A stretch of DNA of 64,000 nucleotides from Thermoproteota archaeon (GTDB taxonomy: Archaea > Korarchaeota > JAOZGF01 > JAOZFZ01), in the NCBI GenBank assembly GCA_027492035.1, contig JAOZFT010000015.1, positions 9,043 through 73,042 of the forward strand, in the 5' to 3' direction. The position numbers and the translations under genes were made by a program. The notes under the pieces were generated by a model. It was not told the origin of the DNA. It saw nothing but the letters and a program-made list of their open reading frames with translations, and made no database searches. Shown piece by piece: positions 13,174-39,971 of the stretch. Position 1 is the first letter of the stretch. The number at the start of each line of letters is the position of its first letter.

Positions 13174-14574
13174 TTAGCCTTTTAAGATAGGTGGTATTTC
13201 AAGTTTAGCTTCAGCAACATCTGCAGGCCATATTGGTTTTGATTGTCCACCTTTCCATTGAAGCAATGGGAAGTGGAAGTGCTGTGCATCAGCAACTGTT
13301 TCTTGGAAGTGGCCTATTAATCTGCCGCTGGCATCGGTACAGTTTATTTTGTCGCATATCTTTATGTTCATAAAGAGTCCTTTGTAGTCCATACTTAACA
13401 ACGCAGCTCTTATTTTGTCAGGATCCATGCTTCCAGCTTTGTTTAAAGCATCTATTAACATCGAGAATTGGTCATGTGCCCAGTAACCACACACTACGGC
13501 TGAGGGTGTATAACCTAGCTGTGCTTTGTATTTGTTTACCCACGCCTTCTGTTCATCTGTTAAAACTGCAGTGGCATCCATGCTTAATACGTAATCTGAA
13601 GCCTCTCCTACTGCAGGGTACCACTCATCTACTGAGAACCATCCTATACCGAACGATGCAACAAATGCTTTCAGTTTCATTTCATGAACCTGTTTAAGGA
13701 ACGCTGTCAAGCTTGGGAGGCCAGTAGAAACTTGGTAAACCAAACTGATGTCAGCTGACTTATATTTGCTGATTAATGGCGTAAAGTCTGTTTCTGGCGG
13801 TGACAAGGTGAAGACGTCATAGTAGACTACTTGCCACCCGGCTTTTTCGAAAGCAGCTTTTAATGCATCCCCCATTCCTCTACCGTAATCTGTGTCTTCA
13901 ACAAGTAAAGCAACTTTTTTGTTTCTTGGCGTGTACCCTGCATCCTTTAATACTTCTTGGAAAGCAGGTACGAATAAGCTGGCATAAATTGGTGGACATG
14001 GCCAAAGTTTGAACCAGTACTTGCTCTCGTCAGGATTCTTTATTCTTTTATAGCATAGGAATTGAGTTTCCCCTACTGAACCCCAATGAATCTTATGATA
14101 CCTTGTAGAAATCTTGTATAGTGCCATTGCTACTGAACTGTGCCAGTTTCCTCCTAATATGTCAGCTCCAAGCCTTACAATCGCGTCTTCGTAGGCTTTA
14201 ACAGCTTCTTCTGGGTCTGATTTCGAATCAACCCAAATAAACTGTATGTCCCTCAGTTTTCCATCCACATACACTGGAATTTTTCCTTGCGCTTTTAATT
14301 CATTATAAGTGAAAAGAATAGCATCTTTGTATTGTTCTCCTGTTCGTGCAGCAGGTCCTGTTAAAGGGGCCACAAGTGCTATTTTGATAGGTGGCCCTGT
14401 CGGAGTTGGTGAAGCTGTTGGTGTAGCTGTAGGAGATGCTGTAGCTGTTGGTGTAGGTGTTGGAGTGGGTGAAGGAGGCTGCCCCACGCATCCAGATAGT
14501 ACCAGAATAGCAATGAGGAAGAAAGGAAGTACGTACTTACCTGAACCTATATATTTTGCCTTCATGATAGGCAC
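13174..14574 (-). CDS. ABC transporter substrate-binding lipoprotein, LivK/type-I periplasmic-binding fold (amino-acid type)
   Basis: Signal peptide plus lipobox-like LSGC, a Thr/Pro-rich linker (SPTPTPTPTATASPTATPTASPTPTG), then a LivK-like binding domain; upstream of the permease/ATPase genes. Confidence 0.8.
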   Translation of the reverse strand: MPIMKAKYIGSGKYVLPFFLIAILVLSGCVGQPPSPTPTPTPTATASPTATPTASPTPTGPPIKIALVAPLTGPAARTGEQYKDAILFTYNELKAQGKIPVYVDGKLRDIQFIWVDSKSDPEEAVKAYEDAIVRLGADILGGNWHSSVAMALYKISTRYHKIHWGSVGETQFLCYKRIKNPDESKYWFKLWPCPPIYASLFVPAFQEVLKDAGYTPRNKKVALLVEDTDYGRGMGDALKAAFEKAGWQVVYYDVFTLSPPETDFTPLISKYKSADISLVYQVSTGLPSLTAFLKQVHEMKLKAFVASFGIGWFSVDEWYPAVGEASDYVLSMDATAVLTDEQKAWVNKYKAQLGYTPSAVVCGYWAHDQFSMLIDALNKAGSMDPDKIRAALLSMDYKGLFMNIKICDKINCTDASGRLIGHFQETVADAQHFHFPLLQWKGGQSKPIWPADVAEAKLEIPPILKG

Positions 14575-15097
14575 CTAGAAGTTGGAAAACTTCCATTACT
14601 CTCTTGAATCTTTCACTCTCATGATTATTTTTTAAGACTAAACTTTAAGTAAAATTTATAAATCTTACCCTTTTTCCCCCTGACGTTCATCTTAATAATC
14701 CATATTTAAATTCTTTTACAACTCTGCAATTAAGTTTCCTGACAAATTTAGTAAGATACACGTATAAAACAGCTGTTTTTCAAGCGTAAATTAGGTAAAG
14801 TGTTGTATACTCTTTAAGTTCATGGTTTAAAATCGTTAAAATAATAATGATACCCTGATAGAAATACTATAAAGGCTCTTTTCTAGTATTATTGTTTATG
14901 GAAAAATTGGAAGATGGGTTACGTATATTCAAAAATTGTTCTATGAAAATGCAAGAAATAAAAATAAAAGATAAAATTTTTAAAGGAAAAATTAAGTATA
15001 AGATGCTTCAATTAATTCCTTACAAAAACCTTTTCTCACTTAATTAGATAAGAGAAAGGGAGTCTTTTTCCTTCAGGAGGATACGGGGGGAATTGAT

Positions 15098-15988
15098 TTG
15101 ATTTCGCCGGTTGAATTGTTGATAGTAAGCTTGTTAAGGGGATCTTTATACGTTTTAATTTCAGCAAGCCTTGCTATGCTCTTCGGTATAATCTCTGTAG
15201 CTAGTTTTTGCCATGGCGACTTTGCTATGCTAGGAGGATATCTTTCGTACTTTCTACTGGTTTCATTGGGACTTAACCCTATCCTGGCACTGGTGTTAAC
15301 TGCTGCTGTAATGTTCCTTTTCGGATGCTTAATCGAGAAATCACTACTTTTCCCACTCCGCAAAACTAGTGGAAAACTTTGGATGTTCTATACATTTGTT
15401 TTAACGCTTGGTATATCCCAAGTTTTGGAGAATGGTGCATTAGCTGCTTTTGGAGCGGCCTTTCTGGGCATTAAAAGCTTATGGCCTGGAAACATTAATT
15501 TACTGGGTACAGCAACTTCTTTAGATAGGTTTGCTATACTTGGAATAAGTGTAGGCATAGTTGTGGTTTTCTGGTTTTTCTTAAAATACACCAAAATTGG
15601 TCGAGCTATTAGGGCTGTAGGTATAAATGAGGAAGCTGCTTCGATTTTTGGGGTAAACGTAAACTTCATTTATACATTAACCTTTGGTTTGTCTGCATTA
15701 TTAGCAGGGATAGGTGGCCTTTTTTACATGGTGCTTTTCACAACGTATCCCTTAATGGGAGTTACTGCGAACTTAAAAGCTTGGATAGTTGTGGTAACAG
15801 CGGGTCTCGGTAACATAAAGGGAGCTATTTACTGTAGTTTTCTATTATCCTTTGCAGAGACACTAGCTTACACTTTCCTTTCTGCTGGGTGGCAAAACGT
15901 TATTTCCATAATCATTGTAGCTTTAATTCTCCTGTTCAAACCCACAGGTCTTTTCGGTACGGAGGTTAAAGGGATATGGGAGAGATAA
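15098..15988 (+). CDS. livH: Branched-chain amino acid ABC transporter permease (LivH-like)
   Basis: 296 aa polytopic membrane protein with LivH-family organisation; TTG start; overlaps the next permease by 13 nt. Confidence 0.75.
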   Translation: MISPVELLIVSLLRGSLYVLISASLAMLFGIISVASFCHGDFAMLGGYLSYFLLVSLGLNPILALVLTAAVMFLFGCLIEKSLLFPLRKTSGKLWMFYTFVLTLGISQVLENGALAAFGAAFLGIKSLWPGNINLLGTATSLDRFAILGISVGIVVVFWFFLKYTKIGRAIRAVGINEEAASIFGVNVNFIYTLTFGLSALLAGIGGLFYMVLFTTYPLMGVTANLKAWIVVVTAGLGNIKGAIYCSFLLSFAETLAYTFLSAGWQNVISIIIVALILLFKPTGLFGTEVKGIWER

Positions 15989-16932
15989 ACCTTCCGAAGC
16001 TAAAAACATTCAAAATACTCCCATACTTACTATTTGTGGTTGCACTTGTACCACCTTTGTTTAAAAACGAATACCTTAACAGCGTACTTATTTCAATTTT
16101 CCTGTGGGCAGCCATAGGGGCCTCCTTTGACCTCACTGCTGGCTTTATAAGAGTGACAAACTTTGGATATGCAGGCTTTTTTGCTATAGGAGCTTACACT
16201 TCAGGGTTATTAGCTTTATATTTCAATATATCTCCATGGATAGGAGTATTTCCTGCTGTGGCATTTGCTGCTGCTCTCGGTGCTCTTGTAGGTTTGTTGA
16301 CTCTGAGGCTGCATGGAATCTATGCTGCAGTTTTCAGTTGGTTCCTTGCAGAAACAATTAAGTACATACTTGCAGCAGCTTCAGATATAACAAGGGGATA
16401 TCAGGGTTTAATGAATCCGCCTCTCTTCCCAGGAATTAGTAGGTTTCCATATTATTACTTCATACTTGGCATCTTAGCCTTTGAAATAATAATCCTTACA
16501 AAAATAGCTAGGGGTAAAATGGGTTTTGCCTTTAGGGTAATAGGAGAAGATGAAACAGCAGCAAAGTCCATAGGGGTCAATGTGCTCTATTACAAAGTTT
16601 CCGCCTTTACAATTTCGACCGCGTTTGCAGGTTTACTAGGAGTTTTTTATGCACATTACATTGGAGTCATAACACCTGACGTAAGCAGTTTAGTAATAAC
16701 TGTGCCTGCACTAGCAATTTGTTACGTAGGCGGAGTAGGTTCAATATGGGGATCAATACCTTCTTCTTTTGTAATCATCACAATATTTGAGGCATTTAGA
16801 GAAATAGGAGCTTACAGATTCATAATCTACGGTGTGCTTTTAATAGTAGTCATGATATGGGCAAGGACTGGACTTGTGGGTTTAATAAGAAAAGCAGCAG
16901 AAAAAATGAAAGTTACAGAAAAAGAAAAGTGA
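15976..16932 (+). CDS. livM: Branched-chain amino acid ABC transporter permease (LivM-like)
   Basis: 318 aa polytopic membrane protein, second permease of the Liv-type system. Confidence 0.75.
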   Translation: MGEINLPKLKTFKILPYLLFVVALVPPLFKNEYLNSVLISIFLWAAIGASFDLTAGFIRVTNFGYAGFFAIGAYTSGLLALYFNISPWIGVFPAVAFAAALGALVGLLTLRLHGIYAAVFSWFLAETIKYILAAASDITRGYQGLMNPPLFPGISRFPYYYFILGILAFEIIILTKIARGKMGFAFRVIGEDETAAKSIGVNVLYYKVSAFTISTAFAGLLGVFYAHYIGVITPDVSSLVITVPALAICYVGGVGSIWGSIPSSFVIITIFEAFREIGAYRFIIYGVLLIVVMIWARTGLVGLIRKAAEKMKVTEKEK

Positions 16933-17040
16933 CTAGCTTTCCCCTCTTTCATTTTTTGCTTTTTCTAGCAATGTTTCCTGGCCTTTAAAAGGTATTATTT
17001 AAGGTATCTGGGAAAAAATAGAGGAAGGGTTTGTAGGGGA

Positions 17041-17778
17041 TTAAAGTCCTAAGTATGCCTTTTTCACATGCTCAGACTCTAATAGTTCATTACCTGCTCC
17101 CTCCATGACTACCCTACCCTGCTCCATGAGATAACCCCTATTTGCCATCTTAAGTGCACTTTCTACGTGTTGTTCAACCATTAATACAGTTATTCCCTCA
17201 TCCCTCACCTTCTCAACCACTTTAAAAAGCTCTGCAACTAAGGTAGGCATTAAACCTAGGGACATTTCATCTATCATTAGAAATGAGGGTTTAAGCATTA
17301 ATGCTCTTGCAACAGCAAGCATTTGTTGCTCTCCACCACTGAGGGTTCCAGCTAGTTGTCTCTTTCTTTCCTTTAACCTGGGGAACAGTTGATAAACAAA
17401 CTCTAATGAATCCTTTATTTCTTCTTCATTTTTTAGGTATGCTCCCATGAGAAGATTTTCGAAAACAGTCATTTTTTCGAAAAGCTGCCGTCCCTCAGGC
17501 ACCATCGCAACTCCAAGCTTAGCAATCCTGTGGGATGGAAGTTTACTTATCTCTGTTCCGTTAAAGAAAATTTTTCCCCTAGCCGGTTTAAGTAAACCTG
17601 CTACTGTTCTTAAAGTCGTTGTCTTCCCTGCTCCGTTAGGACCTATCAACGCAACAATTTCTCCTTTTTCAACATGGAGCGAAAGCCCCCATAAGGCCTG
17701 AAACTTCCCGTAAAAAACATCTATTGTTTCAATCTTTAACATTCCTATATTCACCTTAGAAAATGTATTTCTTTCCAA
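17041..17778 (-). CDS. livF: ABC transporter ATP-binding protein (LivF-like)
   Basis: Walker A GPNGAGKTT, ABC signature LSGGEQQ, Walker B MIDE; 245 aa. Confidence 0.85.
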   Translation of the reverse strand: MERNTFSKVNIGMLKIETIDVFYGKFQALWGLSLHVEKGEIVALIGPNGAGKTTTLRTVAGLLKPARGKIFFNGTEISKLPSHRIAKLGVAMVPEGRQLFEKMTVFENLLMGAYLKNEEEIKDSLEFVYQLFPRLKERKRQLAGTLSGGEQQMLAVARALMLKPSFLMIDEMSLGLMPTLVAELFKVVEKVRDEGITVLMVEQHVESALKMANRGYLMEQGRVVMEGAGNELLESEHVKKAYLGL

Positions 17779-18559
17779 GATAAGCTTTAATTACTGCTTC
17801 ATTACTAGCTATTTCTTTGGGGGTTCCTTCAGCGATTTTTTCACCATAGTGGAGTACAACTAACCTTTGTGCCACATTCATTATGAATCTCATGTTGTGA
17901 TCTACAACTAAGGTTGTAACTCCTTTCTCATGAAGTTTATTTATTAAGTTAATCATTATTGGTAATTCTGAAGGTGTTAAACCTGTTGCTGGTTCATCTA
18001 GTAGTATAAGGCTTGGGTCGGTTAATAACGCCCTAGCTAATTCTATCCTTTTCATTTCTACAACATTTAAACTTCCAGCTACTACATCCCTCTTCTCCAC
18101 TGGAAACTCTACAAACTGCATAGTTTCTAAAGCAGATTTCTTTGCTTCTTTGAAATCTGACAATTCCTTTCTACCAAACATTATTCCACTCATAACATTT
18201 TCAAGTGCTGTCATGTTCACAAAAAGACGTGTAATTTGGAAAGTTCTAGCCACTCCTTTCTTGCAAATGTATTCAGGTTTCTTACCTGTGATATCTTCGT
18301 CTTCAAAGTACACTTTACCTTCCTCAGGTTTATAAATTCCATTTATTACATTTAGAAGTGTTGTCTTCCCTGCTCCGTTAGGACCAACTAAACCCAAAAT
18401 CTCGCCTTTAAAAACATTCAAATTTACTTTGTTTACGGCTACAAGGCCGCGGAATCTTTTAACCACATTATCGGTCCTTAAAATTGTTTCTTCCATAAAA
18501 ACACTCCTCACACCTGTCATTGCATATTTTTGGGGGATGAATTTAAAAAAAATGGGCAT
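17756..18559 (-). CDS. livG: ABC transporter ATP-binding protein (LivG-like)
   Basis: Walker A GPNGAGKTT, Walker B LLDEPATG, C-terminal LivG-type extension; overlaps livF by 23 nt. Confidence 0.85.
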   Translation of the reverse strand: MPIFFKFIPQKYAMTGVRSVFMEETILRTDNVVKRFRGLVAVNKVNLNVFKGEILGLVGPNGAGKTTLLNVINGIYKPEEGKVYFEDEDITGKKPEYICKKGVARTFQITRLFVNMTALENVMSGIMFGRKELSDFKEAKKSALETMQFVEFPVEKRDVVAGSLNVVEMKRIELARALLTDPSLILLDEPATGLTPSELPIMINLINKLHEKGVTTLVVDHNMRFIMNVAQRLVVLHYGEKIAEGTPKEIASNEAVIKAYLGKKYIF

Positions 18560-18700
18560 CTGAATTTTATTTATTTTTTTCTCTCCATATTTGGTTGATG
18601 TTATATAAATATTTATATATTATGCACTAGGTTTTAATTAAAGCTGAATATTCCCTTTCTTTATTGAATTTTTAAAGGGTTTAAAAAAATAACTTATGGA

Positions 18701-20167
18701 GTGGTTTCGGAATTGCGAGAAGGAGTTAAAGGGGGGCAATTAAGGATTTTAAGTAACGAAGATTTGCGGCAAATTTATGTAGCAACCCTTCATCTACTTG
18801 AAAAGCAAGGTGTAAAGGTGGAAAATGAAAAAGCCTTAAACATACTGGCTAAATCTGGCGCCATGGTGGATAAAAGGAGGAAAATTGCTAAAATTCCAGG
18901 CTACATGGTTGAGGAAGCAATTAAAAAGGCACCGAAAAGTATAAGGCTTTGCGGCAGAAACAGAAACCAAGATTTTATTCTTGAAGGAAAAAGAGCTTAC
19001 TTTGGAAGTGGGGTGGGGACCACCCATATTTACGACCTTTATACTGGGGAATACAGAAAAACAAGGAAGAGAGACGTGGAGGACGCATTCAAGCTTTCAG
19101 ATGCTCTTCCAAATATTGATCATGCCTGGGGGTTGTTCAGTTGTACAGACGTACCTTCCAGCGTTGTTGGGCTCCATGAGCTTGAAGCAGGTTTAACAAA
19201 CACCACTAAACACATTTGCATCTACACTTGGCATGGCAAACCCCAAATAAATAAACAAATTGAAATGGCTAAGTTAGTAGCTGGAGGTGAAGAAGAACTC
19301 AGGAAAAGGCCTCTTGTCACCCTCTACAATGAGCCCCATTCACCTCTAACCTACGGAAAAGATTATTTAGATTCCTTAATGGAGTGGGCTAAAGCTGGGT
19401 TGCCTCAAATTTGGTACCCAGCCCCTATGTCAGGGGCTACTTCACCTGTAACAATGGCTGGGACACTGGTTCAAGGCTGGGCTGAGTCATTAGGAGGATT
19501 GGTGATAGCTGAACTCATTAACCCAGGAACCCCTTTCATTGTAGGTACAGGTACTTTCCTCATGGATATGAAGACTTCCTCTATAGTTTATGCTTCAGCT
19601 GAATGTATGCTTTTAGCCGTTGCAATAGCCCAGATTGCCCATTATCTAGATATCCCTCTATTTGGATTGGCAGGAGCCTCAGATTCGCAAGTATTGGACG
19701 GGCAGGCATTAGCAGAATCAGCTATGTATCTTGCTATTTCAGCTTTAGCAGGTCAAAACCTTATTCACGACTTAGGGTACCTAGCTTCAGGTTTAACGGG
19801 GAGTTTAGAACTTTTAACAATTTGTGATGAAATAGTGGCGATGGTTAAAAGGATAGCTAAAGGAATAAAAGTTAATGATGAAACATTAGCTTTGGGCGTA
19901 ATAGAGAAAGTAGGTTTTGGAGGGAATTACTTAAAGGAGAAACATACAAGGAAACATTTCTGGACTGAACACTTAGTTCCAGATTTAATGAATAGAGACT
20001 TTCACTCTGGATGGGTGAAAAAGGGAGGCAAAACTTTGGAGGAGAGGGCTAGAGAAAAAACAAAGAAATTACTTAAAGAACATGAGGTTGAGCCTTTAGA
20101 TAAAGAAGTAAAAAAGAAAATTGAAGAAATAATTAAGGAAACGACGAAAGAAACAACGAAAATATGA
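18701..20167 (+). CDS. MttB-superfamily methyltransferase (non-pyrrolysine trimethylamine-methyltransferase homolog; quaternary-amine:corrinoid methyltransferase candidate), paralog 1
   Basis: 488 aa uninterrupted ORF. Conserved MttB-family blocks include KIPGYMVEEAIKKAPK, AGGEEELRKRP, PLTYGKDY, GATSPVTMAGTLVQ and LAVEAI-like regions. No in-frame TAG. A TTG at 18713 giving MREGVKGGQLRIL matches the paralog N-termini better than the listed GTG start. Confidence 0.85.
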   Translation: MVSELREGVKGGQLRILSNEDLRQIYVATLHLLEKQGVKVENEKALNILAKSGAMVDKRRKIAKIPGYMVEEAIKKAPKSIRLCGRNRNQDFILEGKRAYFGSGVGTTHIYDLYTGEYRKTRKRDVEDAFKLSDALPNIDHAWGLFSCTDVPSSVVGLHELEAGLTNTTKHICIYTWHGKPQINKQIEMAKLVAGGEEELRKRPLVTLYNEPHSPLTYGKDYLDSLMEWAKAGLPQIWYPAPMSGATSPVTMAGTLVQGWAESLGGLVIAELINPGTPFIVGTGTFLMDMKTSSIVYASAECMLLAVAIAQIAHYLDIPLFGLAGASDSQVLDGQALAESAMYLAISALAGQNLIHDLGYLASGLTGSLELLTICDEIVAMVKRIAKGIKVNDETLALGVIEKVGFGGNYLKEKHTRKHFWTEHLVPDLMNRDFHSGWVKKGGKTLEERAREKTKKLLKEHEVEPLDKEVKKKIEEIIKETTKETTKI

Positions 20168-20184
20168 GTTTTGGAGGTGTTTAA

Positions 20185-21189
20185 ATGAAGTTTTCTCATT
20201 TTATCACATGTGTAGATTCCCACACAGCAGGTGAACCAACAAGAATAGTTACTTCAGGCGTACCTAAATTAAGAGGTAAAACTGTAGCTGAAAAAAGGGA
20301 TTATTTCAAGGAAAATCTCGACTATTTACGAACCTTTCTCATGCATGAACCACGAGGCCATAACGACATGTTCGGGGCTGTAGTTGTTGAACCTTCTGAC
20401 GAAAAGGCAGATTTAGGAATAATTTTTATTGACTGCGGGGGATACCTTGACGGCTGCGGCCACGGCACAATAGGTGTAGCTACGGTAGCTGTTAAAACAG
20501 GATTAATTGAAGCAAGAGAACCTGAAACAAAAATAACCATAGAAACCCCTTCAGGCCTTGTTGAAACAATATGTGAAATTAAGGATGGCCACGTTGAGGA
20601 AGTCAAGTTAAGGAATGTACCCTCATTCCTTTATGATACTAAGGAAGTGGATGTGCCTGGTTTCGGTAAAGTAGAGATTGACATAGCTTTTGGAGGAAAC
20701 TTTTTCGCTATAGTTGACGTGAAACAAGTTAAACTTAAAATAAACCCCAAAAACTCCTTGAAACTGATAGATGCAGGGCTAAAAATAAGAGATGCAATTA
20801 ATAAACAAGTGGAAGTTATACACCCAATGAAGAAATACATAAACAAAGTAAATTTGGTGGAGTTTTATGACGACCCGGATATCCCTGAAGCCCACTGCAA
20901 AAACGTCGTTGTTTTCGGTAATGGTCAAATAGATAGGTCCCCTTGCGGCACAGGCACAAGTGCAAAAATTGCAACCCTGTATGCGAAGGGGAAATTAAAA
21001 CTTGGAGAAGAGTTCATCCATGAAAGCATATTGAAAACTGTTTTCCGTGGAAAAGCTTTGAAAGAAACAAAAATAGGGAAATTTAAGGGGATCATCCCGG
21101 AAATAAAGGGTAAAGCATACATCACTGGCTTCAATCAATTAGTGATGGACCCAAAAGACCCTTTGAAACATGGGTTCCAATTAAAATGA
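20185..21189 (+). CDS. Proline racemase / 4-hydroxyproline epimerase family enzyme (both catalytic Cys present)
   Basis: 334 aa; motifs DCGGYLDGCGHGTIG and DRSPCGTGTSAK match the two Cys-containing catalytic motifs of proline racemase family enzymes. Confidence 0.8.
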   Translation: MKFSHFITCVDSHTAGEPTRIVTSGVPKLRGKTVAEKRDYFKENLDYLRTFLMHEPRGHNDMFGAVVVEPSDEKADLGIIFIDCGGYLDGCGHGTIGVATVAVKTGLIEAREPETKITIETPSGLVETICEIKDGHVEEVKLRNVPSFLYDTKEVDVPGFGKVEIDIAFGGNFFAIVDVKQVKLKINPKNSLKLIDAGLKIRDAINKQVEVIHPMKKYINKVNLVEFYDDPDIPEAHCKNVVVFGNGQIDRSPCGTGTSAKIATLYAKGKLKLGEEFIHESILKTVFRGKALKETKIGKFKGIIPEIKGKAYITGFNQLVMDPKDPLKHGFQLK

Positions 21190-21323
21190 AAAAGGGTATC
21201 ACCAGGGAAAAATTTTTGAAAAAAGTTTAAAAAAATGCTGCTTCATTCCTTCCTAAAAATATCCTATAATTTTCTCACTCCCTATCTTTTAAGAAGGACC
21301 CTTTAAAGAGCGAGGCTTTTAAA

Positions 21324-22610
21324 GTGCCGAGATATGATGTAGTAGTGGTTGGGGCTGGAATTCTAGGTTTAACTTCAGCATATTACATAAAGAAGTGGAA
21401 CCCGGACAAATCCGTCTTAGTTATTGATAAGTTCGCTTCAGCTGGCCAAGGGAACACTGCAAAAAGTGAAGCTTCATTCAGAAACGTTTTCTCCTCCAAG
21501 ACAAATTTCTTTTTGGCTGACAGCTCTGTTGATTTTTATTTCCACCTCCAAAATGATCTAGGTTACAATCTTGGCTTGCATAAGATAGGATACTTATTTC
21601 TTTTAGGTGAAACAAGTTACAGAAAAGAAATAAATGTATTCAGAGAAGTTGAGAAGAAAGGGGTGGAAGTCGAGTACTTTGAAAAAGATGACTTGGAAAA
21701 AATGATTCCAGGCGTTGTTTTAGAATTCAGTAGCGAAGATGAGGAAGCTAAAAGACTTAACTTAGAAAACGTTGTGATGGGTGTTTTAGGTAAGAAATGC
21801 GGTTATTTAGACGCTGATTCGCTGGTGAAGTTTTACGAAGAAAGTTTTAAAAAAGAAGGAGGCCTTATTCAGTATAAAACATTGGTTACTGAATTAATTC
21901 TTGAACCCTTAGAAAAATACTGCATACCTGGTGAACCTTTTACGTGGCAAGAAGCAAAAATAATGGGAGTAAAAACAAATAGGGGGGAAATAAGGGCTGA
22001 CACTGTGGTAGTGGCAGCAGGTGCTTGGTCAAACATCCTCCTTGACCCTGTAGGAATAGATGCAAGGGTGAAACCTAAGAAAAGACAAATTTTTGTGTTG
22101 AAAGGGGAAAGCCTTGAGCCATTATTTAACATTAAAGGGTTCAACAAGGAGAGGGTTCTTCCATTTGTGGCTATGCCTACAGCAGAGATTTACCTCAGGC
22201 CATGTATAGAGGAGAAAACTTTCTGGGTTGGTTGCACAGATGAGTTGGGGAGGAAATTTGAGCTCGAAGAAGACCCTCAACCAGAAAAATACTTTTACAT
22301 TTACGGGATCAGGCTTGTACTGGAAAAGTACTTTCCCCATTTCAGGAACCTTAAACCGCTTAATGCATGGGCTGGTCAATACACACAAAACTCTTTAGAT
22401 GCAAACCCTTACATTTTTGAGGAGGCTGGTGTAATAACTGTTACAGGAGCAAGTGGAAGCGGAATACTTAAAGGAGATGCAATCGGCAGAGTAGCAGCTG
22501 CTTTATATATGGGTGAAGACTACGCCGAACTTTATGGCGGAAGGAAATTTAAAGTAAGTGACCTTGGAGTGGATGAAAGAAAGGCTGAAAAGGAAGAGTT
22601 AGTGCTCTAA
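21324..22610 (+). CDS. FAD-dependent oxidoreductase, DAO (D-amino-acid/sarcosine oxidase-like) family, paralog A
   Basis: VVVVGAGILGLTSAYYI dinucleotide-binding motif, 428 aa; clear paralog of 44622..45890. Confidence 0.75.
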   Translation: MPRYDVVVVGAGILGLTSAYYIKKWNPDKSVLVIDKFASAGQGNTAKSEASFRNVFSSKTNFFLADSSVDFYFHLQNDLGYNLGLHKIGYLFLLGETSYRKEINVFREVEKKGVEVEYFEKDDLEKMIPGVVLEFSSEDEEAKRLNLENVVMGVLGKKCGYLDADSLVKFYEESFKKEGGLIQYKTLVTELILEPLEKYCIPGEPFTWQEAKIMGVKTNRGEIRADTVVVAAGAWSNILLDPVGIDARVKPKKRQIFVLKGESLEPLFNIKGFNKERVLPFVAMPTAEIYLRPCIEEKTFWVGCTDELGRKFELEEDPQPEKYFYIYGIRLVLEKYFPHFRNLKPLNAWAGQYTQNSLDANPYIFEEAGVITVTGASGSGILKGDAIGRVAAALYMGEDYAELYGGRKFKVSDLGVDERKAEKEELVL

Positions 22611-22702
22611 TAAAAAAATTATTTATTTTCAAAAAGTTTGTTTACGAAGTTTTTTTGTAACCTACTCCTTTAAATTTTAACTTTTTAAGGAGTTAATTAG
22701 TT

Positions 22703-23992
22703 ATGAAAAAGACACTGATTAAAAATTTAGAGGGTGTACCCCAAACCAAACTTCTTTATTTTAAAGACCCTTACAAATTCAAGTTTAAGGCAGAAATTTT
22801 GAAAAAATGGGAAGTAAATGGGAAAATGTATATAGTACTGGACAAAACCTATTTCTATCCAGAAGGTGGAGGCCAGCCATCAGACAAAGGTTATGTCTCA
22901 GTTGAGGATAAAAAGTACTCGGTTGTGGATGTGCAGAAAATTAAGGGCGTCATTGTTCATGAGTGTGTCCCTTCAACTACTAAATCCTTAGAGGGAAAAG
23001 AGGCTTTAGGTGAGATTGATTCTAAAAGAAGAGTTTCTAATATGCGTTGCCACACAGCCTCACACATAGTGATGTCTGCTATCGAAAAAGTTAAGGGAAA
23101 GGCACAGTACGCAGGTTTTGGAATAGAGGAAGGTAAAGTTAGGTTAGATGTTCAAACTGAGAAAATAACACCCGAAGACTTAGAGGAAATAGAAAGGCGT
23201 TCAAACAAAGTTATTTACCAAGCCATACCTGTAAAAACATACTTTGTTTCAAGGAGTGAACTGGAAAAGATTCTGACCGGTCTCCACTGGGCAAAGGAAA
23301 TACCCCTAGAGGAAAAAGTGAGGATAGTAGAGATTGAGGGTTTCGACAAAAGTATCTGCAGCGGAACACATTGTTTAAACACTATTGAAATAGGGATGAT
23401 CAAAGTAATTAACAAGTTTAGGCTACAGAAGGGGGTTGAAAGGATAGAGTTCTTAGTTGGGGAGGAAGCAGTTAATGAAACCCTGGACTACATGAACAAA
23501 TTAAGTTCTTTAGCTAGGAAACTGAATATTTCAGCAGAAGAAATACCTAATGTCCTTATGAAGTTAAGGAATGAGAAAAAGAGAATGGAAAAAGAAATTG
23601 AAGAAATGAAGCAAGAGTTAACTGAATCAAAATTCAGAAACTTGATAAGTAAAAAAGAGCTGATAGGAACTGTGGAGGTAGTAACTGGGCTCTTAAGGGA
23701 AGCAAACGCCAAAACCCTGGGGAGACTGGTGAAAAAGGAGATAGAGGAAAACGAAAATTTATTCATTGCTGTGGGGGGATTAAGTGGAAAACCAGCATTA
23801 GTTGCTGGAGGTGGGTCTCAACTTATTAAGAAAGGATTAAACGTAAGTCAGGTAGTCAGTGAAGTATGTCAAACATTGGGTGGGAGAGGTGGAGGGTCGA
23901 AAAACATAGGTTTTGGTGGAGGTTTAACAAGTGAAAACATTGCGAAAGCCGTTGAAAAAGTGAAAGAAAGAATTGTGTCATTCATTAAATGA
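22703..23992 (+). CDS. alaX: AlaX-L type alanyl-tRNA editing protein (AlaRS editing domain plus C-terminal Gly-rich domain)
   Basis: HxxxH (HTASH) and CxxxH (CSGTHC) zinc-binding editing motifs of the Thr/Ala-tRNA synthetase second additional domain; C-terminal GGRGGGSKNIGFGGG as in the AlaRS C-terminal domain. Confidence 0.7.
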   Translation: MKKTLIKNLEGVPQTKLLYFKDPYKFKFKAEILKKWEVNGKMYIVLDKTYFYPEGGGQPSDKGYVSVEDKKYSVVDVQKIKGVIVHECVPSTTKSLEGKEALGEIDSKRRVSNMRCHTASHIVMSAIEKVKGKAQYAGFGIEEGKVRLDVQTEKITPEDLEEIERRSNKVIYQAIPVKTYFVSRSELEKILTGLHWAKEIPLEEKVRIVEIEGFDKSICSGTHCLNTIEIGMIKVINKFRLQKGVERIEFLVGEEAVNETLDYMNKLSSLARKLNISAEEIPNVLMKLRNEKKRMEKEIEEMKQELTESKFRNLISKKELIGTVEVVTGLLREANAKTLGRLVKKEIEENENLFIAVGGLSGKPALVAGGGSQLIKKGLNVSQVVSEVCQTLGGRGGGSKNIGFGGGLTSENIAKAVEKVKERIVSFIK

Positions 23993-24026
23993 ACGAGATT
24001 TGTTTCCTTACCCCAAAGTTCTCATT

Positions 24027-25019
24027 TTAAAGGGGGAAGTGTTTGCCTACCCCCTCTTGCAGAGACTTGGTGTAAGCATGTTTTGCTGTAACGGCATCTT
24101 GAACAGCTAACCCTACAGATTTCCAAAGGGTCACTTCATCCCTTGAAACTCTACCCTTTTTTAAACCAGTAACTACCTCCCCTAGTTCTGCGTAGACATG
24201 GCCTTCAGTTATTGCCCCCTCTTTTATGGGAATTATTATGTCTCCAGATTCCGCTAACACTGCCTCTTTTGAATCAACAAAAACTTTTGATTTCTTAACA
24301 GTTTCCGTATCCAACTCTCTTGCGTCTTTCCCCATCCAACCAATTGAGTTAACATGTGTTCCAGGTTTAATCCATTCCCCCTTTAAAACAGGTTTAACCG
24401 AGGTTGTGGCCACTATTAAAACATCACTTGGTTCAACTGCTTTTTCTGCAGTTTCCACGCTTCTGCCTTCAATCCTAAACCTTTCATTAATTTTTTCAGC
24501 TAACTCTTCAGCTTTGTCTTTCACAACATCATAAACTAAAACTGTTTCTATTTCCCTTACTTCTTTCACAGCCCACACTTGGGTAAATGCTTGTTTTCCA
24601 GCCCCTATTACCCCCAAAACCTTAGAGTCTTTGCGAGATAAATACTTAGTTGCTAAACCAGTTGCAGCACCTGTTCTTAAAGCAGTTATGTAACTTCCAT
24701 CCATAAAAGCTAAAGGTTCACCTGTTTCCGGGTTGTTAAGCTGGATAGTTGCATATATTGTAGGTAACTTATGTTTAACAATGTTATCGGGGTATACTGA
24801 AACAATTTTGACAGCTAAAGAGTTAAGGGGTTCAACGTAAGCCGGCATGTAAAGCATTGTGCCTCTATATTTTTTAATATTTATTATCGGCCTTAATGGA
24901 ACTTCCGTTTCTCCCTTAACAAATGCTGAAAAGGCCTTCTCCATTAAATCAATAACTTCTTTCATATCCAGAACTTTCTTTAAGTCTTTTTCAGTTAAAA
25001 GTAAAACCAAATATTTCAC
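24027..25019 (-). CDS. Ornithine cyclodeaminase/mu-crystallin family protein (OCD, archaeal alanine dehydrogenase or pyrroline-2-carboxylate reductase-like)
   Basis: 330 aa; Rossmann motif VIGAGKQA and family-typical layout. Confidence 0.8.
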   Translation of the reverse strand: MKYLVLLLTEKDLKKVLDMKEVIDLMEKAFSAFVKGETEVPLRPIINIKKYRGTMLYMPAYVEPLNSLAVKIVSVYPDNIVKHKLPTIYATIQLNNPETGEPLAFMDGSYITALRTGAATGLATKYLSRKDSKVLGVIGAGKQAFTQVWAVKEVREIETVLVYDVVKDKAEELAEKINERFRIEGRSVETAEKAVEPSDVLIVATTSVKPVLKGEWIKPGTHVNSIGWMGKDARELDTETVKKSKVFVDSKEAVLAESGDIIIPIKEGAITEGHVYAELGEVVTGLKKGRVSRDEVTLWKSVGLAVQDAVTAKHAYTKSLQEGVGKHFPL

Positions 25020-25221: not shown

Positions 25222-27069
25222 TTGGTGATGAAGTTGCATGGTTGGAATGGTAAAATCTTAAGGGTGAATCTATCTAGCTCGAAAGTATCTGTTCAAAAGT
25301 ATGGGGCAGATTTTGCTTTGAAATTCATTGGAGGCAGGGGATTCGCAGTTAAGATTTTATGGGATGAACTTAAATCTGGGGTGGATGCTCTCTCTCCATT
25401 GAATAAACTTGTTATAGCTGCTGGTCCGTTAACAGGTCTACCTGGGCCAAGTACAGGTAAACTTGTGCTTGCAGCTAAAAGCCCTTTAACGAATGGGTAT
25501 GGAGACGGGAACATAGGTGGGTTAGCAGCTGTGCATTTAAGAAAAGCAGGTTATGATGCTTTAGTAATTGAAGGAAAAGCTGAAAAACCTTCCTACTTAT
25601 ATGTAGAAAACGAAAATGTAAGTTTGTTAAGTGCTGACGGTATATGGGGGGAGACAACATTTAAGGCTGAAAATAAATTGAGAGAGGTTCATGGGAGGAA
25701 TATAGGGGTTTTAGTAATTGGACCAGCAGGAGAGAACCTGGTTAAATACGCAACTGTAATTTCTCAAGAGGGAAGGGCTGGTGGAAGGCCGGGTATAGGT
25801 GCAGTTATGGGTTCAAAGAATCTAAAAGCCATTGTGCTTAAAGGAACAAAGGAAATTTCTTTAGCAGACCCAAAAAAACATAAAGAAACAGTGAAGGAAT
25901 GTTACAAATCTATACAGGAAAACGAGAATTATTCTTTCTGGGTGAGACAGGGAACCATGGGTGTAGTGGAGTGGTGTCAAGAAAACAGTACACTGCCCAC
26001 TTTTAATTTCAGAGAAGGAGTTTTTGAGTTTTCAAGGATGATTGACGGTTACACTATGGAAGCCATGAAAATAAGTAGAAGGGGGTGCCCTAACTGTAAC
26101 ATGATGTGTGGAAATGTGGTTGTTGATTTGGAGAGAAAAGATTCTGAGTTAGATTACGAAAACGTAGCAATGCTTGGTTCAAACATTGGTTTAGGTCACC
26201 TGGGAAAAGTTTCGGTTTTAAATAGGTTAGCTGACGAATACGGAATAGATACGATTTCATTGGGTTCAAACTTAGCTTTTGCAATGGAGGCTACAGAGAA
26301 AGGTTTATGGAAGGATGGAATTGAGTGGGGAGACTTCGAAGCTGCAAAAGCACTCGTTGAAGACATTACATATCGCAAAGGTCAAGGTAACCTGTTAGCT
26401 GAAGGAGTAAAAAGGGCTTCTGAAGAACTGGGTGGTGGATCTGAACAATGGGCTATTCACGTTAAAGGACTTGAAGTTTCTGCTTATGACTGTCATACAG
26501 CCCCTGGAATGGCTCTAGCTTACGGCACTTCACCAATAGGTGCCCACCATAAAGATGCATGGGTTATTTCATGGGAAGTAAGCACAAACAGGTTAGGATA
26601 TGGAAAAGAAAAAGTTGATAAAGTAATAGAATTCCAAAGGATCCGTGGAGGAATGTTTGAAACGTTAGTCGCCTGCAGACTCCCATGGATAGAGCTTAAT
26701 TTCAGTCTTGAGTGGTACGTGAAGTTGTTTAAAACAGTTACGGGTATAAGTTTAACATTGAATGAACTGGCTGGAACCGTTGCAGACAGGATTTATTGTT
26801 TAATGAGAGCTTTCTGGGTTAGAGAGTATGGTGAAAAGTGGAACAAAGAAATGGACTATCCACCATCCAGATGGTTCAATGAACCATTAACTAAAGGGCC
26901 TTTTAAAGGAGGAAAGCTGGACATGAAAAAGTATGAAGAAACACTTTTGCTGTACTACCGAGAGAGGGGGTGGGATGAACGAGGCATCCCCAAAAAAAGT
27001 ACCTTTGATAAATTGGGTCTCCAAAAGGAAGCAGTTGAACTTGGTAAACATGTCTCTTTAATCCCCTGA
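25222..27069 (+). CDS. aor: Tungsten-containing aldehyde:ferredoxin oxidoreductase (AOR family)
   Basis: 615 aa; N-terminal AFOR_N-like region ([12 protein letters not shown]...), conserved Cys residues for the 4Fe-4S and pterin domains, typical length. Confidence 0.85.
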
Positions 27070-31223: not shown

Positions 31224-31252
31224 CTTTTAAACTAAACAGGGGCTTGTAGGAG

Positions 31253-36817: not shown

Positions 36818-37720
36818 TTAGGATATTCTGTATCTGGGATGGCTTTTTGGAAGTTTAATCTTTTCCTCTATTAACAATTGGCCGAAGGAAGCATCTACCA
36901 AACTTATTGCTGGGAACATGTATTCTGCGTCTCTTAATGGGCCGTACAATATGAAATCAGCTCCTAAAGCTGTGGGAAGTATACATGAAGAAGCTGTAGA
37001 AGCTATTACTCCTTCTTGGCTTATTTTCTTCTTCAACCCTTTCCACTGACTTACTGCATTATGGGCTCCGCAGCCGGCTGGAACACCGAATTTATCCTTT
37101 ATTTCAAATAAAGCCTTTGTAGCCATTCCAAGAGTTGGTATGTCCAGTACTGTTGTGTCTACCAGAATGTTTTCTAATCCAAGTTCCTCAGCCTTCTTTA
37201 TTAATTCCCCAGCTACTTCAACTCTTCCTTTTGAGGAAATTATTGCTTTCATTCCGTAAGTTAGTAACACTGCACTTTTTAAACCAACCTCTTTCACTTT
37301 GTTTAAAACAACTTCTTTTGTTTCTGGAGTTATTGAGTTCAGAATTATTCTAGACAACAAACCTGTTTCGTTTGAATACTCTAACCCTTCAACCATTGTT
37401 TCATTACTTAATCCATCTAAAAGCAAAGGAACATCTGAATTGTTAGCTGTGAAATCTAAAAATTTTTTCATAGCCTCAGGAGTTGTCCCTACAACATCCA
37501 GCATTAAAGGTAAACCTGTTAAATCAGACATTTCCAAGGCTTTACTTAACTCTTCCCCGGCTTCTTCTTCATTAAACACTCCCTTGTCAGGGTCATTAAC
37601 TACCCTATGTCCTCTGTAAAAGATACTTCCTATTAACACTGTCGGATTCTCCCCAGGATTTCCCCCCAACTTGATGCCTCCTATTTCAACAATTTTTTGT
37701 TTAGCTTTAAATTTCCACAT
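36818..37720 (-). CDS. mtrH: MtrH-like methyl-corrinoid:tetrahydromethanopterin/tetrahydrofolate methyltransferase
   Basis: 300 aa; GGNPGENPTVLIGSIFYRGHRVV ... LPLMLDVVGTTPEA ... DVPLLLDG ... GADFILYGP match the MtrH family blocks (GGQPGEYPT.L.GTIFY ..., LYGPI). Confidence 0.75.
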   Translation of the reverse strand: MWKFKAKQKIVEIGGIKLGGNPGENPTVLIGSIFYRGHRVVNDPDKGVFNEEEAGEELSKALEMSDLTGLPLMLDVVGTTPEAMKKFLDFTANNSDVPLLLDGLSNETMVEGLEYSNETGLLSRIILNSITPETKEVVLNKVKEVGLKSAVLLTYGMKAIISSKGRVEVAGELIKKAEELGLENILVDTTVLDIPTLGMATKALFEIKDKFGVPAGCGAHNAVSQWKGLKKKISQEGVIASTASSCILPTALGADFILYGPLRDAEYMFPAISLVDASFGQLLIEEKIKLPKSHPRYRIS

Positions 37721-37860
37721 CCAAAAACCCCTCTTCTACTCTTTCACTAAGTGAAGGAGAAAGTAAAGATTGAACCTAAAAAAACAAATACAGTTCTTTT
37801 TTTAGAAAAACTTTAGGAAGGTGCTGTTGCGAAAAAAGGTAAAAAAGCTAAAGAATTAAT

Positions 37861-39318: not shown

Positions 39319-39971
39319 CCCTTCCCAATTAACCTTTTAGCTACTTCAACTGCTTCTGTAGCATCTGCTCCATGTCCATCAGCCCCTATTTCCTCAGCCC
39401 ATTCAGGACTTGTAGGGGCTCCTCCAACTATAACTTTGTACTTATCCCTTAACCCCCTCTTTTTAAGTTCCTCGATGAGTTTCTTCTGGACAGGCATTGT
39501 AGTGGTTAATAATGCAGAGGCACCTATTATGTCAGCACCGTTTTCTTCAGCTGCTTTAATGAAGTTTTCAGGAGGTTGGTCGTTGCCTATCTGAATCACC
39601 CTGAAACCTGCTGCCTGAAGCATTGAAGCAACTATCCTCTGCCCTATATCATGTATATCCCCCTCAACTGTACCTATCACAATTGTTCCTACGTATTCAG
39701 CTTTCTCCTTTGATTTCTCCAATGCAGGCCTCAAAACAGTCATAACACTGTTCATAACCTCAGCTGACCCAACTAAATCCATCAAAAATATTTCTCCCCT
39801 CCCAAACTTATCCCCTATCTCTTTCAATTTTTTTGATAATGCATTCACAAGTTCAACAGGGCTCATGCCACGTTTTTCAAGTAATTCCTTAGCTAACTCG
39901 TCAGCACCCTCCGGTTCAGCTTCATCAAGTCTCTTCAACAACTCGTTAAGCACATCTTCTTTAGTGGACAC
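39315..39971 (-). CDS. Corrinoid (B12-binding) protein, MttC/MtbC/MtgC-like
   Basis: 218 aa; B12-binding-N helical cap plus Rossmann B12-binding domain with the DxHxxG motif (GDIHDIGQRIV). Confidence 0.85.
   Translation of the reverse strand: MSTKEDVLNELLKRLDEAEPEGADELAKELLEKRGMSPVELVNALSKKLKEIGDKFGRGEIFLMDLVGSAEVMNSVMTVLRPALEKSKEKAEYVGTIVIGTVEGDIHDIGQRIVASMLQAAGFRVIQIGNDQPPENFIKAAEENGADIIGASALLTTTMPVQKKLIEELKKRGLRDKYKVIVGGAPTSPEWAEEIGADGHGADATEAVEVAKRLIGKG

Follow-up and report, generated by a model that had tools for sequence, protein, structure and literature searches.

Why should a corrinoid methyltransferase gene lie next to a proline racemase gene in an archaeon? The question is raised by a locus in a 64-kb window (the whole stretch of DNA that was analysed) from an uncultured, hot-vent Thermoproteota archaeon. 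The original prediction was that four genes of this locus form a novel archaeal pathway for the catabolism of proline-type betaines, and its archaeal host and its gene assignments are both borne out. The four open reading frames are found where they had been placed, and match the expected families: the MttB-superfamily methyltransferase MttB#1 (18701..20167, + strand; PF06253, 323 bits), the proline racemase ProR (20185..21189, +; PF05544, 426 bits), the FAD-dependent dehydrogenase DAO#1 (21324..22610, +; PF01266, 146 bits) and an OCD/mu-crystallin protein (24027..25019, -; PF02423, 281 bits). A fifth gene, absent from that prediction, encodes an AlaX-L-like protein of 429 residues (22703..23992, +; tRNA_SAD and DHHA1 domains in Pfam and NCBIfam) and sits between the flavoprotein and OCD genes. 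The OCD gene is thus convergent as predicted, but with AlaX and not with the flavoprotein. The set is flanked by a Liv-type ABC transporter (13174-18559) and by an aldehyde:ferredoxin oxidoreductase (AOR) gene divergent from the OCD gene (25222..27069, +; AFOR_N 251 bits, AFOR_C 382 bits), and both flanks recur alongside MttB, ProR, DAO or OCD genes in relatives.

MttB#1 is indeed directly 5' of ProR, as predicted. The junction, read directly from the sequence, is 17 bp long (20168..20184, +) and contains GGAGGTG, a Shine-Dalgarno-like ribosome-binding site six bases 5' of the ProR ATG. Such a gap leaves no room for a promoter, so that the two genes are probably co-transcribed as a bicistronic operon. 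The pair is also found in two same-species assemblies (L001 and L164), and the metagenome-assembled genome (MAG) of a sister species keeps it (L005; 87% identity for MttB, 79% for ProR, 43-bp gap) although its remaining neighbourhood differs. Three further lineages have a non-orthologous MttB directly 5' of ProR on the same strand: as corrinoid protein-MttB-ProR (59%)-DAO (50%), lacking OCD, in an archaeal relative (L166), as MttB-MttB-ProR with a 27-bp gap in Anaerolineae (L050), and as MttB-ProR-corrinoid protein in L127, where ProR is inserted between MttB and its corrinoid protein. The racemase homologues of these strings are of the Cys-Cys type, as checked at the residues themselves. The ProR-linked MttBs are mutually just 37-49% identical and show no common active-site signature (VFAHG, GIRGN, LFCHG and -FTHA), and an orthologue (71% identity) of the ProR-adjacent MttB of L050 lies after an OCD-family gene in L067.

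As originally noted, ProR retains both catalytic cysteines, C91 in DGCGHGT and C254 in DRSPCGTGT. This Cys-Cys pair argues against a Cys-Thr dehydratase or a homologue of the Ser-Cys type. The protein scores 418 bits against the A. sticklandii racemase (7pb3), 357 against TlProR (6j7c) and 234 against a trans-3-hydroxy-L-proline (T3LHyp) dehydratase (7qpo), and its identity to clostridial racemases is 55-60% (56% for C. difficile). Its best NCBIfam match is proline racemase, at 511 bits, which is below the equivalog cut-off of 556. F63 and F244 reproduce the Phe pattern of natural proline racemases (sites 62 and 241 of TlProR), F244 occupying the specificity site at which TlProR has W241. Judged by its ligand-site residues and closest similarity, the gene product is predicted to be a canonical proline racemase.

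The flavoprotein had been read as a D-amino-acid/sarcosine-oxidase-like enzyme that demethylates or oxidises an N-methyl amino acid, and demethylation is not supported. Its residues 1-428 align end-to-end with residues 21-448 of 3axb (288 bits), which we take to be the A. pernix L-proline dehydrogenase structure of Sakuraba 2012, and the C-terminal Leu tail is conserved (EELVL, ERLVL in 3axb), whereas sarcosine oxidases reach at most 41 bits as structures and at most 71 bits as models. The D-proline dehydrogenase model NF040813 matches the N-terminus only (E=4.5e-7). DAO#1 is a homologue of the dye-linked A. pernix-type L-proline dehydrogenase over its full length, and the natural reading is a predicted role in L-proline oxidation and not in N-demethylation. 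The OCD-family protein scores 417 bits against 6t3e (T. litoralis LhpI, TlLhpI), 231 against the A. fulgidus alanine dehydrogenase 1omo and 71 against a true OCD (1u7h), with all NCBIfam scores under their cut-offs; by closest similarity, it is an LhpI-type pyrroline-2-carboxylate reductase. ProR, DAO#1 and the OCD-family protein are all close homologues of characterised proline enzymes, and AOR is a candidate oxidiser of glutamate semialdehyde.

The four genes had been expected to form a conserved neighbourhood; in relatives, they belong instead to two separable blocks. Same-species contigs aside, no fetched locus keeps MttB, ProR, DAO and OCD as four (contigs L001 and L164 end inside the DAO gene and were left out of this comparison). 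ProR, DAO and OCD co-occur in several permutations among relatives, such as OCD-ProR without MttB in L165 and L167, or OCD-DAO in L171. Orthologues of the flavoprotein (65-68% identity) adjoin AlaX, AOR, a prolidase-like M24 peptidase, OCD or a Liv transporter, in neighbourhoods from which ProR is absent and MttB mostly absent. In L169, L171 and L173, DAO orthologues have both the AlaX-like gene and AOR as neighbours; L173 belongs to the sister MAG, where the AOR orthologue is 80% identical and the DAO-AlaX-AOR set lies on another contig than MttB-ProR. Conservation thus sets flavoprotein, AlaX, OCD and AOR apart as a block of their own, to which neither MttB nor ProR belongs, and in the window the flavoprotein gene is preceded by a 134-bp spacer with T-runs and TATA-like boxes. 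The novelty of the set is reduced to one link. The combination of ProR, an FAD-dependent proline dehydrogenase and an LhpI-type OCD is already published (PMC4141209, PMC4364671), so that three of the genes are of a known archaeal proline cluster type; what remains new is the link to MttB alone, no published connection of MttB with ProR having been found in the literature searched.

The reading tentatively favoured here, with somewhat less than even confidence, is a proline-centred catabolic unit made of these two blocks, in which MttB#1 would demethylate an N-methylated proline-type compound. MttB#1 and ProR, as an operon transcribed away from the ABC importer of the amino-acid type, would make up the first block. 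MttB#1 could take a methyl group off proline betaine or N-methylproline, a methylated-proline substrate being plausible, and hand it on to the corrinoid protein of another part of the window (39315-39971, -; Pfam B12-binding), from which it would reach an MtrH-like transferase. The proline product would then enter the second block, usable in either stereo-form because of ProR. This second block, comprising the flavoprotein, the AlaX-like gene, the LhpI-type reductase and AOR, may be the version in this lineage of the known archaeal proline module. The flavoprotein would convert L-proline to pyrroline-5-carboxylate/glutamate semialdehyde, AOR may oxidise the semialdehyde to glutamate, and the LhpI-type reductase would return pyrroline-2-carboxylate to L-proline. 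A second demethylation step would also be involved, for which no enzyme is evident at the locus.

Sharing of a corrinoid protein has to be assumed in this scheme. No corrinoid protein gene adjoins MttB#1, and the nearest complete methyl-transfer set, corrinoid protein-MttB#2-MtrH-like MT2, is found at 36818..39971 on the - strand, with MttB#2 at 37861-39318 (Pfam MTTB) and the MT2 gene at 36818-37720 (Pfam MtrH; 314 bits for the MtrH-family model, cut-off 287). This MtrH-like gene is the only one in the window, which encodes two corrinoid proteins in all. There is a precedent in E. limosum, where methyltransferases of the MT1 type use a common corrinoid protein and MT2 whose genes lie elsewhere (PMC8604678). 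The importer consists of a Liv-type (Peripla_BP_6) solute-binding protein (13174..14574, -; PF13458, 136 bits), LivH-like and LivM-like permeases (15098..16932, +; PF02653, 110 and 120 bits) and LivF-like and LivG-like ATPases (17041..18559, -; NCBIfam LivF 273 bits, LivG 213 bits). The ATPase genes are divergent from MttB#1 across a shared 141-bp AT-rich promoter region, and the arrangement of the permease genes is the same in the same-species contig L164. The closest solved structure to the solute-binding protein is the amino-acid-binding protein 3ip5, at just 60 bits. The importer is of the Liv/amino-acid type and not of the betaine type, to which OpuAC/ProX or BCCT would point.

Much of this evidence would also fit ordinary catabolism of proline, in which the Liv-type transporter takes up D- and L-proline of peptide origin and ProR, the L-proline dehydrogenase, the LhpI-type reductase and AOR degrade it, with MttB#1 acting on another methylated compound and merely co-regulated with ProR, in an island serving both amino acids and methyl compounds. 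We regard this as quite possible, if short of probable. Archaeal clusters of ProR, proline dehydrogenase and LhpI are already published as a type (PMC4141209, PMC4364671), with no methyltransferase among their genes, and the orthologues of DAO#1 keep company with the M24 peptidase, AlaX, OCD, AOR and the Liv transporter and not with ProR or MttB. Two close relatives of ProR (L167 and L168) lack MttB, which is present in only one of 80 ProR-centred metagenome loci, and the nearest paralogues of MttB#1 (L004, 70%; L003, 67%) both have other neighbours. The density of MT1 genes is also high, with four in the 64-kb window (three MttB paralogues and one non-Pyl MtmB homologue), so that some chance adjacency is to be expected. 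The absence from MttB#1 of the arginine that binds betaine carboxylates, described below, points the same way. Against this stand the Shine-Dalgarno-coupled junction of 17 bp, which implies obligatory co-expression, the retention of the pair in the sister species in an otherwise different neighbourhood, and the independent MttB-ProR strings of L166, L050 and L127. Prokaryotic genes that are expressed together usually serve one pathway. The coupling is thus a testable hint that MttB#1 acts on a methylated proline, and a useful lead.

What MttB#1 itself could bind was considered from its active site. Its open reading frame of 488 codons has no in-frame stop, amber included, and the pyrrolysine of 7xcl (X) is matched by Ala326 in the alignment. 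With the pyrrolysine codon absent and a TIGR02369 score of 480 bits, under the cut-off of 525, a Pyl-dependent trimethylamine methyltransferase is rejected. Family membership is nevertheless full-length: the PF06253 match covers profile positions 30-498 of 500, and every invariant column of a 36-sequence alignment is kept. MttB#1 is equidistant from the Pyl-MttB 7xcl (243 bits) and from MtgB 9yce (241 bits), with 33% identity to each. In MtgB, the substrate is held by Y97 and F356 through pi-cation contacts and by R312 and H348 at the carboxylate, R312 being reported as conserved in MtgB, MtpB, MtcB, MtyB and MthB (PMC13080624). Y97, R312, the Pyl position, H348 and F356 of MtgB correspond to V105, F321, A326, H356 and G364 in MttB#1, a correspondence on which the HMMER pairwise alignment agrees with a MAFFT alignment of 152 sequences. 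MttB#1 lacks both the carboxylate-binding arginine and either aromatic cage residue; only the histidine, one of the four glycine-betaine-binding residues, is kept, and an assignment as MtgB is therefore rejected. F321 also departs from the arginine reported for MtpB (PMC13080624), a difference that weighs against MtpB orthology as far as a comparison by this one reported residue can go. MttB#1 falls in an archaeal (TACK/Asgard) clade. We know of no substrate for this clade.

Such an active site raises the further possibility, which we consider unlikely, that MttB#1 acts on some other methylated substrate, amine or amino acid, which neither derives from proline nor is a carboxylate betaine. An N-methyl amino acid (tertiary or secondary) and a carboxylate-free cation are candidates, and the product would be handled by side activities of ProR or of the LhpI-type enzyme. 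In most of about 150 fetched relatives, as in MttB#1, Phe or Trp replaces the carboxylate-binding arginine; TlLhpI has N-methyl-L-alanine and alanine dehydrogenase activity (PMC4141209), and MtyB is weakly active on a secondary amine (PMC8604678). The residues of ProR are, on the other side, canonical and proline-specific, and no other class of substrate is known for its subfamily. Liv-type transporters and OCD-family genes do lie by MttB relatives of Firmicutes and Chloroflexi (L054, L066, L067 and L082), but these OCD-family neighbours belong to a different, SbnB/AlaDH-like subgroup (28-32% identity) and so say little about the MttB#1-ProR locus. A Stickland-like coupling, in which the methyl groups from MttB#1 are oxidised and D-proline from ProR accepts the electrons by way of a D-proline reductase whose gene lies elsewhere, is highly improbable: ProR does share 55-60% identity with the Stickland-type racemases of clostridia, but no Prd homologue is found among the annotated genes of the window or of related loci, and T. 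litoralis, an archaeon with ProR, lacks a homologue of this reductase (PMC4364671).

The betaine reading is weakened by the separate conservation of the second block, the other contexts of the paralogues, the missing arginine, the lack of a shared signature and the amino-acid-type importer. The betaine pathway first proposed is supported in part, for its enzyme families and for the MttB#1-ProR coupling, and lacks support or calls for correction at the arginine (F321), the role of the flavoprotein, the four-gene unit and the type of transporter.

Among known systems, the proline-hydroxyproline cluster of Thermococcus litoralis and T. sibiricus, with ProR (OCC_00372), the pyrroline-2-carboxylate (Pyr2C) reductase LhpI, L-proline dehydrogenases and transporters (Watanabe et al. 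2014, 2015; PMC4141209, PMC4364671), is alike in that an archaeon carries these three enzyme families next to one another, with an amino-acid-type transporter adjoining them. In contrast, the window has no Cys-Thr trans-3-hydroxyproline dehydratase, Phe stands in its ProR where the Trp of TlProR broadens the specificity towards hydroxyproline, and its proline dehydrogenase is of the single-subunit A. pernix type, unlike the heteromeric Pyrococcus/Thermococcus types. The probable co-transcription of ProR with a corrinoid methyltransferase gene is also unreported for Thermococcus. [quoted passage not shown] The logic is similar, each route combining demethylase, racemase and proline dehydrogenase with the oxidation of an aldehyde on the way to glutamate, but all the enzymes are unrelated. 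The Hpb demethylases need oxygen whereas MttB#1 would be corrinoid-dependent, the enolase-superfamily racemase acts on the betaine whereas ProR would act on proline, an LPDH-type flavoprotein and AOR stand in place of PutA, and a counterpart of HpbA, the second demethylase, is not identified at the locus.

The MtgB, MtpB, MtcB, MtyB and MthB systems, with their corrinoid protein, MT2 and activase, resemble the window in that MttB#1 matches PF06253 over its full length without pyrrolysine, and in that the window also encodes a corrinoid protein together with an MT2 of MtrH/MtgA-like type; the low identity to MtgB and the loss of R312 and of the aromatic cage set MttB#1 apart. N-methylproline is reportedly the end product in E. 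limosum, and to our knowledge no link of mtpB to proline-catabolic genes has been reported. As an orphan MT1 in a putative racemase operon, MttB#1 also differs from the mtrH-mttB-mttC clusters of Culexarchaeia, Brockarchaeia and Asgard lineages, for which no such arrangement is described in PMC9723716 and PMC11291895. The host belongs to the same broad group as these non-methanogenic methylotrophs, and the MttB#2 set at 36818-39971 is arranged exactly as their clusters are. At the other end of the locus, a TATA-like TTTAAAAAAA is found at 18680-18689, upstream of MttB#1, whose translation probably starts at the TTG at 18713 rather than at 18701.

A substrate:corrinoid methyltransferase (MT1) gene of the MttB type, MttB#1, is found in this window in operon with a proline racemase gene (ProR), beside an archaeal proline module of known type. 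MttB#1 (18701-20167, + strand) codes for 488 residues with no internal stop and matches PF06253 with 323 bits. As originally predicted, ProR (20185-21189, +; PF05544, 426 bits) lies directly downstream. Their 17-bp junction, TGA-gtttt-GGAGGTG-tttaa-ATG, includes a strong ribosome-binding site and has no space for a promoter. A TATA-like box of MttB#1's own lies upstream of it, and the two genes form a bicistronic unit. This arrangement provides a reasonable and testable clue to what one archaeal MttB paralogue acts on, not a demonstrated pathway. That its substrate is an N-methylated proline-type compound feeding a proline route is quite possible, although short of an even chance.

Gene calls combine an ORF map with Pfam and NCBIfam scans, whereas junction and promoter features come from direct reading of the intergenic regions; tRNA and Rfam scans of the 64-kb window gave no feature. 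The start codon of MttB#1 is probably TTG 18713 rather than GTG 18701, because the resulting N-terminus (MREGVKGG...) fits the family consensus MRxGxKGGQLKIL. The TATA-like sequence TTTAAAAAAA is located about 27 nt ahead of this TTG (region 18680-18715), which suggests a leaderless transcript. The window proteins are identical or 99% identical in two NCBI MAG assemblies (L001, L164). Among species-representative genomes, "MAG: Thermoproteota archaeon isolate Flange_M5_B4" is closest (MttB 87%, ProR 79%, AOR 80%), and the archaeal assignment is therefore supported.

The racemase aligns with the Acetoanaerobium sticklandii proline racemase structure 7pb3 with 418 bits, with T. litoralis ProR (6j7c) with 357 bits and with trans-3-hydroxyproline dehydratase with 234 bits. 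Clostridial racemases, including that of C. difficile, are 55-60% identical to it. Both catalytic cysteines expected by the original prediction are present (C91 and C254), and Phe244 occupies the site of T. litoralis Trp241, a residue that broadens specificity to hydroxyproline (PMC4364671). From these scores and residues, the protein is best read as a proline-preferring racemase. The dehydratase identity, envisaged together with a non-conserved neighbourhood as one outcome that would refute the prediction, is rejected on the basis of the Cys-Cys pair and of the model scores (511 bits for ProR against 367 for the dehydratase).

The flavoprotein DAO#1 (21324-22610, +) had been labelled sarcosine-oxidase-like and given an N-demethylase role. 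Its alignment with 3axb (288 bits) covers the full length, including the C-terminal ...LVL; we take 3axb to be the A. pernix dye-linked L-proline dehydrogenase (LPDH) of the structure paper by Sakuraba et al. 2012. Sarcosine oxidase, glycine oxidase and D-proline dehydrogenase models give weak matches. Since the demethylase-type models, sarcosine oxidase and N-methyl amino acid oxidase included, reach at most 71 bits, neither label nor role is supported. A Pyrobaculum-type D-proline dehydrogenase is also rejected, its match being limited to the N-terminal dinucleotide fold. The OCD/mu-crystallin protein (24027-25019, -) matches pyrroline-2-carboxylate (Pyr2C) reductase 6t3e with 417 bits, against 231 for archaeal alanine dehydrogenase and 71 for true ornithine cyclodeaminase, an identity thereby rejected. 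All four predicted genes are in place, but an AlaX-like gene (22703-23992, +) between flavoprotein and OCD genes had been missed. An aldehyde:ferredoxin oxidoreductase gene (AOR, 25222-27069) comes after the OCD gene.

DAO#1 probably has its own promoter, because the 134-bp spacer before it contains T-runs and TATA-like boxes. Its orthologues (65-68% identity) have AlaX, OCD, AOR, a Liv transporter and a prolidase-like M24 peptidase as conserved neighbours; none of these loci includes ProR, and one of them (L173) has an MttB. This context, with M24 peptidase and without ProR, suggests that the DAO#1 block usually takes in proline released from peptides. The AlaX-L-like protein (tRNA_SAD and DHHA1) resembles the C-terminal half of archaeal AlaRS. 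Its gene adjoins an LPDH-type flavoprotein in the window and at L169 7608-8906, L171 6559-7878 and L173 7625-7903, with a prolidase-like M24 peptidase just upstream in two of these three related loci. The reason why a tRNA-editing-type protein accompanies proline enzymes is not obvious. A second LPDH-type flavoprotein, DAO#2 (44622-45890, +), is 51% identical to DAO#1 and lies tail to tail with another paralogue, MttB#3 (45919-47385, -), 28 bp apart, so that this flavoprotein family adjoins an MttB twice within the window.

The predicted four-gene unit needs correction. The sister MAG keeps the orthologous MttB-ProR pair (L005, 43-bp gap), but a convergent MttB fragment comes after it in place of the flavoprotein; the DAO-AlaX-AOR genes of this MAG are on another contig (L173), beside an unrelated MttB-corrinoid pair. 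The neighbourhood thus consists of two blocks. Of 80 genome loci scanned around MttB relatives, the majority encode a corrinoid protein next to MttB, none has a DAO#1-like gene near MttB, and three include a ProR-family gene (L005, L050, L073). L050 is from Anaerolineae (MttB-MttB-ProR), and L073 (Dehalobacterium) is discounted because its ProR-family protein is of Ser-Cys type. Conversely, in 80 metagenome loci centred on ProR relatives, MttB is seen in one (L127, MttB-ProR-corrinoid), an OCD-family gene in 10 and Liv-type ATPases in 14. Four further loci, with the closest ProR relatives (59-60% identity), differ in layout: corrinoid-MttB-ProR-DAO (L166), OCD-ProR with an MtmB-corrinoid pair 6 kb off (L165), OCD-ProR-arginase followed by a partial DAO (L167), and ProR alone (L168). 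A DAO#1-like gene is near MttB in the archaeal relatives L166 and L173. Overall, at least four lineages have MttB immediately upstream of a Cys-Cys ProR, with a different MttB in each (37-49% mutual identity).

Two other associations were observed in these loci. A PFL-like glycyl-radical enzyme (784 aa) and its activase are directly upstream of OCD->ProR in L165 (1509-4788) and L167 (3233-6512); the enzyme may be of the hydroxyproline dehydratase type, and the window has no PFL-like counterpart. An MttB relative (PFCHG or SFCHG) and an SbnB/AlaDH-like gene repeatedly occur together in Firmicutes and Chloroflexi (L054, L066, L082; also L065, L067, L073). A complete Liv-type ABC importer accompanies them in L054, L066 and L082, and a corrinoid protein in L054 and L066. 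The set resembles a conserved bacterial cluster. At 28-32% identity, these SbnB/AlaDH-like OCD-family genes are weak as a proline link.

The main competing explanation, an ordinary proline module next to an unrelated methyltransferase, is a serious possibility, only slightly less likely than the N-methylated proline reading. Adjacency alone is weak evidence here because MT1 genes are dense (4 in 64 kb), and the DAO#1 block is conserved in its own right; co-transcription and recurrence carry the MttB-ProR argument.

MttB#1 is equidistant (33% identity) from the pyrrolysine (Pyl)-containing MttB and from MtgB. The glycine-betaine-binding residues of MtgB have been experimentally defined as Y97, F356, R312 and H348, with R312 reportedly retained in MtpB, MtcB, MtyB and MthB as well (PMC13080624). 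Their counterparts in MttB#1 are V105, G364, F321 and H356, which means that the carboxylate-binding Arg is missing, as it is in most archaeal and bacterial relatives fetched (signature S/P-F/W-C-H-G at the MtgB Y97, R312, Pyl, H348 and F356 positions). The ProR-linked MttBs display VFAHG, GIRGN, LFCHG and -FTHA, and neither a common signature nor a single clade was found for them. The GIRGN protein (L166 5928-7367), with an Arg at the pyrrolysine position (GPGGRTDSK), has a signature unlike those of all other MttBs fetched. The nearest MttB#1 paralogues (70% and 67% identity) have other neighbours: an amino-acid permease and a metallophosphoesterase, or a luciferase-like oxidoreductase. The Liv-type ABC importer upstream of MttB#1 (13174-18559), its ATPase genes divergent from MttB#1, has a binding protein of distant Liv/amino-acid type.

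As judged from sequence, the betaine reading is weakened by the missing Arg and the lack of a common signature, and also by the paralogue contexts, the DAO#1-block conservation, the importer and the MT1 density. The predicted betaine substrate needs correction as well. A methyl substrate that is neither proline nor betaine is unlikely. A Stickland-like role is highly improbable.

If the N-methylated proline-type compound is the substrate, MttB#1 would transfer its methyl group to the corrinoid protein at 39315-39971, part of a corrinoid-MttB-MtrH string that includes the paralogue MttB#2 (36818-39971), and from there it would pass to the MtrH-like transferase (MT2); E. limosum offers a known case of such MT1/corrinoid/MT2 sharing (PMC8604678). 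ProR would equilibrate the product's stereoisomers, the LPDH-type flavoprotein would oxidise L-proline and AOR the glutamate semialdehyde, with Pyr2C being salvaged by the LhpI-type enzyme. No enzyme was identified for the second demethylation. Overall, the scheme parallels the aerobic route Pro-betaine -> N-methyl-Pro -> Pro -> Glu proven in bacteria, whose enzymes are however unrelated to those of the window (PMC3950512). In its fullest form, which is unlikely, MttB#1 would use a corrinoid to demethylate proline betaine or N-methylproline, binding this N-methylated proline without the conserved Arg. With ProR, L-proline dehydrogenase, Pyr2C reductase and AOR, it would provide the first complete anaerobic conversion of a proline-type betaine to glutamate. 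Methyl groups would then feed the H4MPT/THF pathway, and within the uncharacterised archaeal (TACK/Asgard) non-pyrrolysine MttB clade, MttB#1 would be the first to be given a substrate. Proline betaine would be completely used without oxygen, whereas the corrinoid system of E. limosum reportedly ends at N-methylproline. Otherwise, the locus is one more known archaeal proline module.

Such modules have been described in T. litoralis and T. sibiricus, with ProR, L-proline dehydrogenases, LhpI reductase and transporters; a Cys-Cys ProR-like gene accompanies LhpI in several thermophilic archaea and bacteria, and Pyr2C possibly derives from D-proline via a FAD enzyme (Watanabe et al.; PMC4141209, PMC4364671). 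Three of the four window genes belong to this cluster type, so the MttB link alone could be new. Literature searches found no MttB-ProR link and no N-methylproline-corrinoid link, and an eLife study of genome neighbourhoods in the ProR superfamily leaves MttB unmentioned. Bathyarchaeia-like, Brockarchaeia, Culexarchaeia and Asgard archaea have abundant non-pyrrolysine MttB homologues, which are routinely cited for non-methanogenic methylotrophy, although they are treated as an uncharacterised group, an archaeal clade without known substrate (PMC9723716, PMC11291895). An MT1 translationally coupled to an enzyme whose specificity is narrow and well understood, such as proline racemase, is one of few contexts naming a candidate substrate class, and yields a short list of compounds to test.

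The MttB#1 locus is part of a wider amino-acid catabolic island. A run of amino-acid-fermentation-type genes (28702-36744) codes for a LarA-family (malate/lactate racemase-like) protein, a 2,4-diaminopentanoate dehydrogenase-like protein, a two-subunit 2-oxoacid:ferredoxin oxidoreductase, an HpaB/4-hydroxybutyryl-CoA dehydratase-like protein and a class III aminotransferase. Just past the importer binding protein (9932-13074, -) are a luciferase-like oxidoreductase, a type also found after the MttB#1 paralogue in L003, an EutA/arylmalonate-decarboxylase-like protein (Asp/Glu racemase fold) and a class III aminotransferase. Further along, an operon-like series (45919-52194, -) runs from a second corrinoid protein through an MtmB-family protein (461 aa), an AAA5+VWA ATPase and a DUF2284 metal-binding protein to MttB#3. 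This MtmB homologue is non-pyrrolysine, since it has no in-frame stop; a related MtmB-corrinoid pair is the one near OCD-ProR in L165, and Methanococcoides reportedly needs a non-pyrrolysine MtmB homologue to use tetramethylammonium and choline (PMC13044021).
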